Positions 32,123 to 35,000 of a stretch of DNA of 64,000 nt are shown in pieces. The notes beneath the pieces are model-generated. The model made no database searches. It was not told the origin of the DNA and worked only from the letters and a program-made list of their open reading frames with translations. Made by a program: the position numbers and the translations under genes. Within the stretch, counting starts at the first letter, position 1. Each line of letters opens with the position of its first letter. Source of the DNA: a virus. The DNA lies in IMG/VR virus record IMGVR_UViG_3300036770_004732, positions 47,302 through 111,301 of that record, one strand, 5' to 3'.

Positions 32123-35000
32123 TCACCCGATGGTTGGTGCTGTCAATGCAACAGGAGTGTTACTAGCAGCAGCAAGATCAAGTGGGAAGTTGTGAGCATT
32201 CCTTGTGTTTTAACCTTTGTCGCCAAAGGGAGCGGACTATATCATCACTCATAAGAGTGTCGGACGCTAGTGGCGTATTACGGATGAAGCGTCATCCACC
32301 GCCTAGTCTCTGAACCTTCCTTACACGCTTGCAAGGCTTGGCTGCTGATTGTCTACAAGAGAGTTCCAGCAATTCATCCGATTTAACGAGCGCCATGCGT
32401 TCACAAAACGCTCGTGCATGACTTCCATTCCAAGTCCAGCACGGTTGAGTACATCAGCCCAGGTATTGATTACCTTGCCCTGACTATCAACAATACTTTG
32501 ATTAAAGTTGAAGCCATTCAAATTGAACGCCATAGTAGATACACCAAGAGCGGTAAACCAAATACCCACGACGGGCCAAGCAGCAAGGAAGAAATGCAGA
32601 CTACGAGAATTGTTAAACGAAGCATATTGGAAGATGAGACGACCAAAGTACCCGTGTGCGGCAACAATGTTGTAGGTTTCTTCTTCTTGTCCGAACTTGT
32701 ATCCATAGTTTTGTGATTCATTTTCAGTAGTCTCACGAACCAGTGAAGAAGTAACCAGAGAACCGTGCATAGCACTGAACAGTGAACCACCGAACACACC
32801 GGCCACTCCCAGCATGTGGAAGGGGTGCATCAGAATGTTGTGTTCTGCTTGGAAAACCAACCTATTAAGCAGAACGAGGAACCTATGTTTCCATAGGGAT
32901 TGGACTATATCATCAATCTATTTTATTAGATTGTCGGGCGCTTAAACCTGTTATTAAGAGGGCTAAACCTCTCAGGTAGTCTCTGAACCTTTCTCAGATG
33001 TATCTGAGACTTGGCTGCTGATTGCCTTGTCGTATTGCTCTTTAAGAAAGAGATTAAACTGTTCTTCTGTATTATTACCATAACCATAAAGGTCGTGGAA
33101 TAGTTTATGAACTTCTTTGTGAATAAGAACGCCGTTTGTAATATCATATCTTCTTTGTGGATATGCATTCCAACTATCTAAATGATGAGTAACAAGGTTA
33201 GATTTTTTACCAGTAACAACACAAGTTCTATTAAACCTCTGTTTTACTGCCTCTCTCCAAATATAATAATCTGTTGAGGGATTGTTAAAATCTCTATTTG
33301 GAGTTCCTTTATAAGCAGGATGGTTTTTACCAAACTTACCTTTAAGAGAACCTTTACGACCTTGTGCTTTTAGAGATAGAAGTTTTCTGGTTTCATCACC
33401 AACATCCTTCCCTTTTTGAGTTTTGGAGATAGTGATTTTCCTACAATAAGGACAACCAGTTTTCTTTGCGTTTTTATAAGAAGCAACACTTGTATAGAAA
33501 TATTCACTACAAGTATTACAAAAGAACCAGACTTTACTTTTAATATCAGTATAACCGTCCATACAAACTACTTCGTGGTTTCTATTTTCAGCAATACTTT
33601 TTAAATCATCAATAGTAAGTCTTTTAGACATTTAACTTTATGTATCTATTAATATTTATAATAGCATAAAGTTAAAAGTTAGTCAATACGATTTAGGTTT
33701 CCAGCAGTTCACCCGATTTATACTACACATTGGTTTAGTTTATGTAGTTGAATGTACCAGAGATACCCAGAGGCATTCCGTCACTAAAACTTCCTTGACC
33801 GAAAGGATAAACAAGGAATACGGCAGATGCGGCAGCAACAGGAGCACTGTAAGCAACGCAGATCCAAGGACGCATACCAAGACGGTAGGAAAGTTCCCAC
33901 TCACGACCCATATAGCAGAAGATGCCGATGAGGAAGTGGAAGACAACCAACTGGTAAGGACCACCGTTATAAAGCCACTCATCAAGTGAAGCAGCTTCCC
34001 AGATGGGATAGAAGTGCAATCCAATGGCGTTGCTTGAAGGAACTACAGCACCAGAAATGATGTTGTTTCCGTACATGAGAGAACCGGCAACTGGTTCACG
34101 AATCCCGTCGCCTACACCTAACAAACAACCATATCATTAGACTTAGGTTGTTTCTGTTGACGAATCAGATTTGCTCGTTTTGCGTTTTCTACTCTTCCAC
34201 CATTTTCTACCCACTCTTTCCAAGTTTGTAGATGAGAAATAGATTCATTTATTCTTTCTGCCCGTCTTACTCCCATATAAGGAAGTATTTTTTGTAGAAT
34301 GAATAAAACCTTTTCTTTTTCTCCGATGTGAAGTGTATAAACTTGTTTACCTTTTACAGTTTTTCTTGATGGTGAGAAATACGACTTATCTAAAAGTTTA
34401 CTCAACCTTTGGATAATATCTTCATCTACCATAGAAACTTTGATAAAAGGTGCTGGCGGTGTATTAGAAACTTCATAACGGTCTTTGGAACGATTATCTA
34501 TTCCAAAGTATCCTTCACCTTCTAATAAACCAGCAATCCAAGCAATATCAGTTTCTGTTAAGTTTAACATTTTAGTTTTGCTTCTACTGTATTATTTATA
34601 CAGCATTAGCAAGAAAAAGTCAACAGTAGATGTGTGGACTATATCTTCACCCTTCATAGAAGGGGCTGGGCACTTAAACCTGTTATTAAGAGGACTGAAC
34701 CTCTCAGGTAGTCTCTGAACCTTCCCCAAGTGTACTTGAGGCTTGGCTGCTGATTGCCTTTCGGTTTCCAGCATTTCACCCAGTTTCGTCAATACTCTTA
34801 CGAGTAAGGGACACCGATTAGTTAATGTCTACGGGAGGTGCAGCAATGAAGGCGACGATGAAACATACGGTTGCGGCAAGCAGCGTAGGAATCATCAGAG
34901 TACCGAACCAACCAACATAAAGGCGGTTGTTCGTTGAAGTAACCCACTCGCAGAATTGATCCCAAGTGGAATTAGAGCGTTGTGCAATTGAAGCAGTCAT
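32123..35000 (-). CDS. psbA: photosystem II D1; exons 34825-35000, 33742-34110, 32408-32861, 32123-32200 (358 aa spliced)
   Basis: Exons of 176+369+454+78 = 1077 nt join in frame (PPVDI|DGIREP, TFNYM|LVFQAEH, VMHER|[10 protein letters not shown]). Confidence 0.97.
32201..32407 (-). mobile_element. group I intron 3 of psbA (207 nt, ORF-less)
   Basis: Exon ends in U, intron ends in G; guide GCGCTCG pairs with exon CGAGCGT; core AATCAGCAG, GTTCAGAGACTA and GATATAGTCC. Confidence 0.95.
32862..33741 (-). mobile_element. group I intron 2 of psbA (880 nt) with HNH ORF
   Basis: Guide GTGTAGT pairs with exon ACTACAT; AAACCAA pairs with the 3' exon; P/Q/R/S core; terminal G. Confidence 0.93.
32972..33631 (-). 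CDS. intron-encoded HNH homing endonuclease with Zn-ribbon and NUMOD-like segment
   Basis: [18 protein letters not shown] and [26 protein letters not shown]; 3' end overlaps the ribozyme core. Confidence 0.85.
   Translation of the reverse strand: MSKRLTIDDLKSIAENRNHEVVCMDGYTDIKSKVWFFCNTCSEYFYTSVASYKNAKKTGCPYCRKITISKTQKGKDVGDETRKLLSLKAQGRKGSLKGKFGKNHPAYKGTPNRDFNNPSTDYYIWREAVKQRFNRTCVVTGKKSNLVTHHLDSWNAYPQRRYDITNGVLIHKEVHKLFHDLYGYGNNTEEQFNLFLKEQYDKAISSQVSDTSEKGSETT
34111..34824 (-). mobile_element. group I intron 1 of psbA (714 nt) with LAGLIDADG ORF
   Basis: Guide GTGTC pairs with exon GACAT; core TGCTGGAAA, AATCAGCAG, GTTCAGAGACTA and GATATAGTCC; terminal G. Confidence 0.93.
34118..34570 (-). 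CDS. intron-encoded single-motif LAGLIDADG endonuclease
   Basis: [15 protein letters not shown] motif; TATAAATA at 34593-34600. Confidence 0.88.

Follow-up and report, generated by a model that had tools for sequence, protein, structure and literature searches.

Group I introns in the psbA genes of cyanophages have so far been known mainly from the intron of phage S-PM2, which has no open reading frame (ORF), and from the free-standing nuclease that accompanies it. This nuclease, F-CphI, cuts intron-less psbA at the site encoding ER|NAH in the D1 protein, and the intron protects the phage's own gene (PMC6083498). In the cyanomyovirus S-CBWM1, a psbA group I intron with a 633-bp homing endonuclease ORF has been described (Xu 2018, as cited in PMC8557907). 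Outside the phages, ten group I introns are listed in Table 4 for the chloroplast psbA of Oedogonium cardiacum (PMC2442088). The subject here is a psbA gene in the last 64 kb (the window, that is, the whole stretch of DNA that was analysed) of the 111,301-bp IMG/VR viral contig IMGVR_UViG_3300036770_004732, for which CheckV estimates a completeness of 48%. This gene is interrupted three times, and the interruptions are very probably group I introns, optional and mobile, that come with three kinds of homing endonuclease and belong to a pool in which chlorophyte plastids also share.

The gene occupies the minus strand of the window from 35000 to 32123. With the intron-less cyanophage D1 of S-BM1 as query, tblastn returned four collinear minus-strand pieces, and joining 35000..34825, 34110..33742, 32861..32408 and 32200..32123 gave a D1 of 358 amino acids (aa) with no stop. 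The exons are 83-97% identical to functional phage D1. The junctions fall in codon 59 (phase 2, PPVDI|DG), in codon 182 (phase 2, the Met of TFNYM) and after codon 333 (ER|NAH). The D1 numbering of the window equals chloroplast numbering minus one (anchors I60, M183 and R334), so the introns stand after nucleotides (nt) 179, 548 and 1002 in chloroplast numbering, by which insertion sites are named below. When all candidate split points were scanned, only these three junctions combined 20 of 20 residue matches with a U at the end of the exon and a G at the end of the intron. Group I identity was judged by the Rfam covariance model RF00028, with its curated cut-off of 50 bits. The exons and introns are as follows.

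34825..35000, minus strand: psbA exon 1 (codons 1-59, of codon 59 the first two bases), final U (tblastn, junction search)
34111..34824, minus strand: intron 1, 714 nt, chloroplast site 179; ribozyme core 34824..~34619, guide GUGUC at 34814..34810, terminal G at 34111 (RF00028 match 34834..34618, 65.4 bits)
33742..34110, minus strand: psbA exon 2, final U (tblastn, junction search)
32862..33741, minus strand: intron 2, 880 nt, chloroplast site 548; guide at 33735..33723, terminal G at 32862 (RF00028 match on the 3' part, 33119..32881, 52.9 bits)
32408..32861, minus strand: psbA exon 3, 3' end CGU (tblastn, exon joining)
32201..32407, minus strand: intron 3, 207 nt, no ORF, site 1002 (ER|NAH); guide GCGCUC at 32393..32388, terminal G at 32201 (RF00028 match 32478..32213, 80.1 bits)
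32123..32200, minus strand: psbA exon 4, including the stop codon (tblastn, exon joining)

Unspliced reading frames reach a stop 2, 2 and about 30 codons into introns 1, 2 and 3, respectively; because every unspliced junction runs into a stop, D1 output would need three splicing events. The same junctions were found again in dozens of independent contigs, and because of this recurrence they are neither chance nor misassembly. Searches with the two intron-encoded nucleases as queries led to 28 and 13 IMG/VR contigs, and a chloroplast homologue of the first of them (P0083) led to 28 metagenome contigs, of which 26 are of cyanophage type and two of chloroplast type. An assembler that had joined intron-like pieces of other genomes into psbA might produce something similar, since the source is an assembled IMG/VR contig with an estimated completeness of only 48% and conserved intron cores could mislead assembly; yet such an artefact is exceedingly improbable, as the 28 and 13 viral and the 26 metagenome contigs, which come from many separate samples, have identical junctions, the exons connect without any shift of frame, and the isolate S-SRM01 has the same site-1002 intron with 204 of 207 positions identical.

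S-SRM01, a freshwater T4-like cyanomyovirus, is the closest sequenced genome to the window: 47% of the psbA region aligns to it at 85.6% identity, and 28% of the following 24 kb at 78%. It too has three group I introns in psbA, with a site-1002 intron 99% identical to intron 3 and an F-CphI orthologue, but its other two introns stand at sites 276 (with an HNH ORF) and 750 rather than 179 and 548. Its gene (L001, MW015081.1 207172-210276) consists of four exons and three introns, of which RF00028 matches two, the rest following from exon mapping. In the published annotation an endonuclease accompanies two partial D1 genes, and only one intron is proposed (PMC8557907); the three introns in S-SRM01 psbA went unrecognised by its authors. 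S-PM2 resembles the window in its ORF-less group I intron at site 1002 (212 nt, against 207 nt here), in a 142-aa EndoVII-motif nuclease directly downstream (82% identical) and in a PhotoRC-II leader; it differs in having one intron only, with an intron identity of 74%, whereas the window adds two ORF-bearing introns elsewhere. S-CBWM1, likened here by its cited description, shares with the window an intron-borne endonuclease in the psbA of a cyanomyovirus, but its intron is single.

In phage T4, late promoters drive the intron nucleases, and the introns spread through homing during mixed infection. Like the window, T4 shows several group I introns in one T4-like phage, in td, nrdB and nrdD (I-TevI, I-TevII and I-TevIII) (PMC3984707). 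There, however, the enzymes are of the GIY-YIG or HNH type and the introns are spread over three nucleotide-metabolism genes, whereas the window has three introns in one photosynthesis gene and one enzyme is of the LAGLIDADG type, a family absent from a review's list of those most often encoded in phage introns (PMC3984707). In the literature searched, which did not extend to key subscription papers, so that a prior description is possible, no report was found of a multi-intron cyanophage psbA, of LAGLIDADG enzymes in cyanophage psbA or of an intron link between phages and chloroplasts.

The introns are related group I introns of IA1-like architecture, predicted from sequence to be self-splicing. 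Each has an internal guide that would pair with the end of its own exon in P1, namely GACAU/GUGUC in intron 1, CUACAU/GUGUAG in intron 2 and GAGCGU/GCGCUC in intron 3, with a U.G pair at the splice site in every case. P10 pairings with the 3' exon can be drawn for all three (UCG/CGA in intron 1, AACCAAU/GUUGGUU in intron 2, and GCAU/AUGC plus UGUGA/UCACA in intron 3). In intron 1, an 8-bp P9 stem formed by CUGUUGAC (34626..34619) and GUCAACAG (34161..34154) encloses the ORF, and a 7-bp helix, ACAUCUA (34633..34627) with UAGGUGU (34120..34114), adjoins the 3' splice site. The ORF is thus placed in L9, because the whole core precedes it, the 8-bp stem closes the ORF loop and the 7-bp helix abuts the 3' splice site. 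In intron 2, the 5' strands of P3, P4 and P5 lie at 33716..~33696 and the core from P5' to P9 at ~33030..32862; the ORF here is placed in L5, because the guide and the 5' strands of P3 to P5 come before it and P5' to P9 after it. The low RF00028 score of intron 2 follows from the same arrangement, since the ORF splits the core.

The three cores are related to each other, introns 1 and 2 being 82% identical over 134 nt and 91% over P3-P5, with intron 3 more distant. RNAalifold of 11 site-179 introns gave 58 consensus pairs and recovered P2, P3, P4, P5, P6, P7.1/7.2 and P8; 14 of these pairs, in P2, P6, P7.1/7.2 and P8, show compensatory changes on both sides. In intron 3, P9 shows one compensatory change relative to the S-SRM01 intron, while for intron 2 the core is supported by its 82-91% identity to that of intron 1 and not by covariation of its own. 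The IA1 subgroup is defined by extra P7.1/P7.2 helices between P3' and P7 together with its own core consensus. The site-179 alignment contains a covarying extra hairpin after GGUUCAGAGACUA, and the positional homologues of these introns in chloroplasts are classed as IA1 (PMC2442088).

A preliminary description of this locus, made from the letters alone, had already proposed four exons splicing in frame to a 358-aa D1, which tblastn and exon joining bear out. The U at each 5' splice site, the matching guide and the terminal G that it had seen were recovered for all three introns, as was the ORF-less intron 3 at ER|NAH, and it had rightly equated this site with that of the S-PM2 intron. Its statement that D1 needs three splicing events holds by construction, given the stop at each unspliced junction.

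Three nuclease families are associated with these introns, and a further nuclease gene lies downstream.

34118..34570, minus strand: single-motif LAGLIDADG homing endonuclease gene, 150 aa, in L9 of intron 1 (PF14528)
32972..33631, minus strand: zinc-ribbon and HNH homing endonuclease gene, 219 aa, in L5 of intron 2, its 3' end overlapping P5'-P7 (PHROG matches, residues, fold)
31627..32055, minus strand: free-standing EndoVII-motif homing endonuclease gene, F-CphI orthologue, 142 aa (PF02945, Endonuclease_7, 90.2 bits)
30408..30779, minus strand: second free-standing HNH endonuclease gene, about 850 nt further downstream (PF14279, 51.7 bits; PF01844, 34.3 bits)

The intron 1 protein matches LAGLIDADG_3 (PF14528) at 23.7 bits (cut-off 22.5), and the stop codon of its ORF stands 7 nt before the 3' splice site. 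It has one motif in 150 aa, IAGLLEGEG, and the pattern WxAGxxEGEG, including E17, G18, E19 and G20, is invariant in 20 homologues. When modelled in two copies it scored 0.77 against 0.40 for the best control, with the LAGLIDADG helix as interface, a contact agreement across runs of at least 96% and a predicted local distance difference test (pLDDT) of at least 79. This mark was attained by 20 of the 30 proteins whose solved structure is a pair of one chain, and by 1 of the 23 whose solved structure is a single chain; since comparable homodimers have already been solved, the result may come from likeness to, or memory of, these and is not proof. The strongest 22-bp pseudo-palindrome of the spliced coding sequence (CDS) is centred 2 nt from the intron 1 site, with 8 of 11 symmetric pairs, a unique maximum among 1055 centres. 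This fits a homodimeric enzyme. The four strongest 22-bp pseudo-palindromes (spliced CDS 174, 231, 634 and 892) lie within 2-8 nt of insertion sites occupied here or in relatives (176, 227, 642 and 887), and this proximity, by a rough statistical estimate, hints at dimeric nucleases targeting them.

The intron 2 protein matches PHROG HNH families at 3.7e-11 and 1.6e-4 as well as phage proteins annotated as HNH. A CxxC...CxxC pattern and the residues H149, H150, N166, H175 and H179 are invariant across 18 homologues. In its AF2 model (pLDDT 81.6), strands 146-150 and 167-171 are followed by a helix at 172-182, and HNH nucleases make up all of its 13 best structural matches (Z 5.4-6.9, root-mean-square deviation 2.6-4.3 over 70-103 residues). 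Foldseek against the PDB gave no match for this model at E <= 0.001, the weaker matches being mostly HNH domains, and a PDB sequence search with the ORF gave RING-finger-like matches to the zinc ribbon only, which were uninformative. For its chloroplast homologues the HNH_2 model scores 16 bits, below its cut-off of 21. No deposited phage genome was found with a homologue of more than 60% identity to either intron nuclease.

The third enzyme would serve the ORF-less intron 3. The F-CphI orthologue begins 67 nt after the psbA stop and is 82% identical, without gaps, to S-PM2 F-CphI and 84% to the S-SRM01 copy; it keeps the DHDH cluster, R110 and N118, residues named for F-CphI in PMC6083498. 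For the more distant HNH gene at 30408..30779, a link to psbA is no more than possible. The motif TATAAATA occurs at 34600..34593, 23 nt upstream of the LAGLIDADG gene, and at 33660..33653, 22 nt upstream of the intron 2 HNH gene; four of its nine matches in the 64 kb stand 22-25 nt upstream of four intron-linked nuclease genes. By analogy with T4, this placement suggests that the nucleases are transcribed separately and late.

These features bear on whether psbA might be a decaying pseudogene whose introns no longer splice. Relatives do contain shortened, ORF-less intron derivatives, the P10 of intron 1 is short and the intron 2 score lies barely above the Rfam cut-off. All the cores nevertheless score above that threshold, each guide fits the exon of its own intron and covariation has been kept; intron 2 scores low because an ORF interrupts its core, both intron nuclease ORFs are full length with invariant catalytic residues, and the four exons are intact, at 83-97% identity to functional phage D1. 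Decay is therefore a very improbable account of the gene, and optional, mobile introns remain the preferred one.

The connection with chloroplasts is seen in position, architecture and sequence. In Oedogonium, Oc.psbA.1 is an IA1 intron at site 179 with an ORF for a one-motif LAGLIDADG protein in L9, and Oc.psbA.6 is an IA1 intron at site 548 with an HNH ORF in L5 (PMC2442088); introns 1 and 2 of the window match them in nucleotide position, ORF loop and nuclease family. The differences are that the alga's introns lie in a plastid genome, that its ORFs have 184 and 202 codons as against 150 and 219 here, and that site 1002 is not in the Oedogonium list. Phage contigs also occupy the Oedogonium sites 276, 570 and 645, and Floydiella likewise has site 276. 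By rough arithmetic (13 phage sites, ten Oedogonium sites and about 1060 positions), about 0.1 shared sites would be expected by chance, against five observed.

Oedogonium was compared through its Table 4 listing, and sequence homology was established on other chloroplast-type contigs and on UniRef proteins. Two metagenome contigs, L049 (109,909 bp, VFQU01000108.1) and L074, encode a D1 of green-plastid type, with the N-terminus MTAILERRES and a short LDLAVVEAPAVNG C-terminus, and a gene of the psaA/psaB family (photosystem I core) is a neighbour in L049. In both, an intron is inserted precisely behind nt 179, and a LAGLIDADG ORF follows its ribozyme core. The protein of L049 (P0083) is 53-54% identical to that of the window, and the L074 copy is 68% identical to P0083; in green algae, a nuclease identity of 44% at one site has been treated as homology (PMC1513399). 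The site-179 ribozyme cores of phage and chloroplast type are 74-78% identical with long identical blocks (78.5% over 200 nt). For the intron 2 HNH protein of the window, UniRef proteins of the green algae Scotinosphaera, Oedocladium and Staurocarteria show 47-50% identity across about 92% of its length; the Oedocladium entry is called a "putative HNH homing endonuclease". A 52%-identical HNH ORF also lies in a site-548 intron of L077 (CAZAJH010000209.1), a fragment of chloroplast-type psbA. From these sequence comparisons, introns 1 and 2 are read as positional and sequence homologues of the chlorophyte chloroplast introns at 179 and 548. In Chlamydomonas reinhardtii, according to passages of PMC5931967, chloroplast psbA has four group I introns, and D1 depends on several splicing events as it would here; this organellar gene is likened to the window by intron number and splicing dependence, not by insertion sites.

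L077 also shows consecutive introns at 548 and 570 with 22 nt of exon between them, and at least one more intron upstream. Green-algal chloroplast psbA fragments of this kind are filed as a bacterial metagenome-assembled genome (MAG), as with L077 (uncultured Flavobacterium), or as metagenome, as with L049.

The searches of bacterial and archaeal species genomes gave no evidence for these introns in host cyanobacteria. No close LAGLIDADG relative was found in those genomes, and among 185,579 species representatives no picocyanobacterial genome had either element in psbA. For the HNH protein the sole full-length match was a chloroplast fragment binned in a MAG, and the two cyanobacterial matches, in Microcoleus and Tychonema, cover the HNH domain only and lie outside psbA and outside any group I intron.

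The preliminary description had assigned a LAGLIDADG protein to the intron in codon 59, an HNH protein to that in the Met of TFNYM and three different nuclease families to the locus as a whole. The junction search with the Pfam match confirms the first; PHROG matches, invariant residues and fold agree on the second; and the third can now be specified as LAGLIDADG, HNH and EndoVII-type. Its remark that the layout is typical of algal chloroplast psbA proved to understate the case, since introns 1 and 2 have positional and sequence homologues there. The comparison of insertion sites that it had proposed was run, and places 179 and 548 with Oedogonium and 1002 with S-PM2.

The optional nature of the introns is apparent from the relatives. 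At least 13 psbA insertion sites are occupied among them (179, 230, 276, 317, 499, 548, 570, 645, 750, 890, 992, 1002 and 1008), nearly all with exon-U and intron-G by exon mapping. Intron number varies from 0 to 5, with up to five RF00028 matches in one psbA (L024), and every site is polymorphic. At sites 179 and 548, ORF-less shortened forms retain the 3' tail of the ORF, and because they keep this last part they point to the loss of a nuclease gene. Of 69 complete psbA genes from the closest IMG/VR relatives, 65 are free of introns and four contain one near site 1002; the sample comprised the 80 closest relatives by exon 3 (69 of them complete) and was chosen for an uninterrupted exon 3, so that introns within that exon are excluded. 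Introns are 92-99% identical between contigs, as against 65-92% for the adjacent 150-nt exon stretches, and intron 3 is 98.6% identical (204/207) to its S-SRM01 copy, as against 75-85% for the flanks. This mosaic of presence and absence, together with the pattern of conservation, is what homing elements produce. The window is not unique, as multi-intron psbA recurs in IMG/VR cyanophage contigs.

Four or five group I introns per psbA were counted in the IMG/VR contigs L024, L012, L026, L028, L031 and L033.

The same data bear on a regulatory role, in which three successive splicing steps would control D1 output in response to, say, light or redox; such a role would be compatible with a selfish origin. 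Unspliced RNA cannot give D1, with a stop within 2-31 codons at each junction, the site-1002 intron is 99% conserved between the window phage and S-SRM01, and passages of PMC5931967 describe a light-dependent ratio of spliced to unspliced psbA in S-PM2 and light-dependent splicing of the psbA introns in Chlamydomonas. Against a control point, however, stand the 65 of 69 intron-less genes of the closest relatives, the polymorphism of each site with 0 to 5 introns, and the nucleases that the introns carry or neighbour, which are a homing signature; no regulatory element specific to these introns was found. Gating of D1 in this way, as an added role, is accordingly considered unlikely and is not needed to account for the locus, and optional homing elements remain the better explanation of the three introns.

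Several observations weigh against that explanation. The P10 of intron 1 has only 3 bp. For the intron 2 ORF no Pfam HNH model scored above its cut-off, the sole Pfam match being a sub-threshold DUF4379 zinc finger, and the structural Z-scores, at up to 6.9, are middling. The motif TATAAATA is not enriched across the window, with nine occurrences against 7.3 expected, so that only its placement is notable. The prevalence sample, selected for an uninterrupted exon 3, under-counts introns, and the higher conservation of introns than of their flanks could partly reflect structural and coding constraint. At site 179, phage and chloroplast type share 78% of the core and 74% of the exon (third codon positions, 52%); because these values are similar, they fit old common descent of this intron as well as recent transfer. 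Splicing itself and the activity of the nucleases are, moreover, inferred from sequence.

Taken together, the observations fit the following course of events. In an uncultured T4-like cyanophage with S-SRM01 as a relative, psbA would have been invaded by three related group I introns, each tied to a homing endonuclease, with the ORF-less intron 3 partnered with the adjacent F-CphI orthologue in collaborative homing. The gene's own promoter would drive a transcript through all three introns, and the ribozymes would excise themselves by way of their guide pairings, restoring the frame of the 358-aa D1. The nuclease genes would probably be transcribed separately and late from the TATAAATA motifs 22-25 nt upstream of their start codons. 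In mixed infections the nucleases may cut intron-less psbA alleles, and repair would then copy the intron in. The introns would thus be optional selfish elements, dispensable for D1 function, and introns 1 and 2 would belong to a pool of introns whose members also occupy the psbA of green-algal chloroplasts at identical positions. It appears somewhat more probable than its opposite that the psbA genes of cyanophages and of green-algal chloroplasts have a single pool of IA1 introns and endonucleases in common, one that is still mobile, at least five sites coinciding to the nucleotide (179, 276, 548, 570 and 645), whatever route and direction the exchange may have taken. Because D1 is so conserved, the endonuclease targets would be present in both kinds of genome.

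The remaining features of the gene lie in its leader and at its 3' end.

35166..35194, minus strand: sigma-70-like psbA promoter, TTGACA-17-TATGAT, 11 of 12 positions (consensus match only)
35040..35134, minus strand: PhotoRC-II RNA motif in the psbA 5' leader (RF01717, 40.5 bits, cut-off 39)
32080..32111, minus strand: psbA terminator hairpin GGAACUC-UUCG-GAGUUCC followed by U7, running into TATAAATA at 32087..32080 (read from the sequence)

The PhotoRC-II motif is also found 5' of psbA in related loci. A perfect extended sigma-70 consensus, TTGACA-18-TATAAT with TG, lies inside the last psbA exon (32146..32117, minus strand), just upstream of the terminator and the F-CphI-like gene. In S-PM2 the same region yields the antisense RNA CfrI on the opposite strand. 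Genes neighbouring psbA in the window include those for a phage lysozyme, a C39-like peptidase and a class II aldolase. A chloroplast origin of the window was considered and rejected, given its D1 of cyanobacterial or phage type with a C-terminal insertion, its S-SRM01-like flanks, the phage lysozyme and PhotoRC-II.

Elsewhere in the window, a phage tRNA gene missed by ARAGORN (59625..59350, minus strand) is split by a 202-nt group I intron at 59590..59389 (RF00028, 64.6 bits). Removal of this intron at a U / G junction leaves a 75-nt tRNA-Arg(UCU), the intron standing after the first anticodon base. A free-standing HNH ORF (59299..58829) follows directly, with TATAAATA 23 nt upstream. Rfam also matches a wcaG RNA (52731..52832, minus strand, 75.1 bits) and an abiF RNA (59728..59764, minus strand, 44.7 bits), the latter adjoining the tRNA cluster.

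In summary, several introns can coexist in one phage psbA, as do the three here and the up to five in other contigs, and phage introns can carry LAGLIDADG enzymes. Annotation pipelines break such genes into "partial D1" fragments, as in S-SRM01, and amplicon or read-mapping surveys of cyanophage psbA may miss or miscount intron-bearing alleles. With insertion sites, ORF positions and nucleases that match those of chlorophyte chloroplast psbA, the origin of the patchy introns of algal plastids becomes testable, as does the question of whether mobile introns can cross between bacterial viruses and eukaryotic organelles. If there is indeed a common pool, cyanophage populations would serve as a reservoir of such introns and might also carry them between the two, which could explain the sporadic, intron-rich psbA of some chlorophytes.

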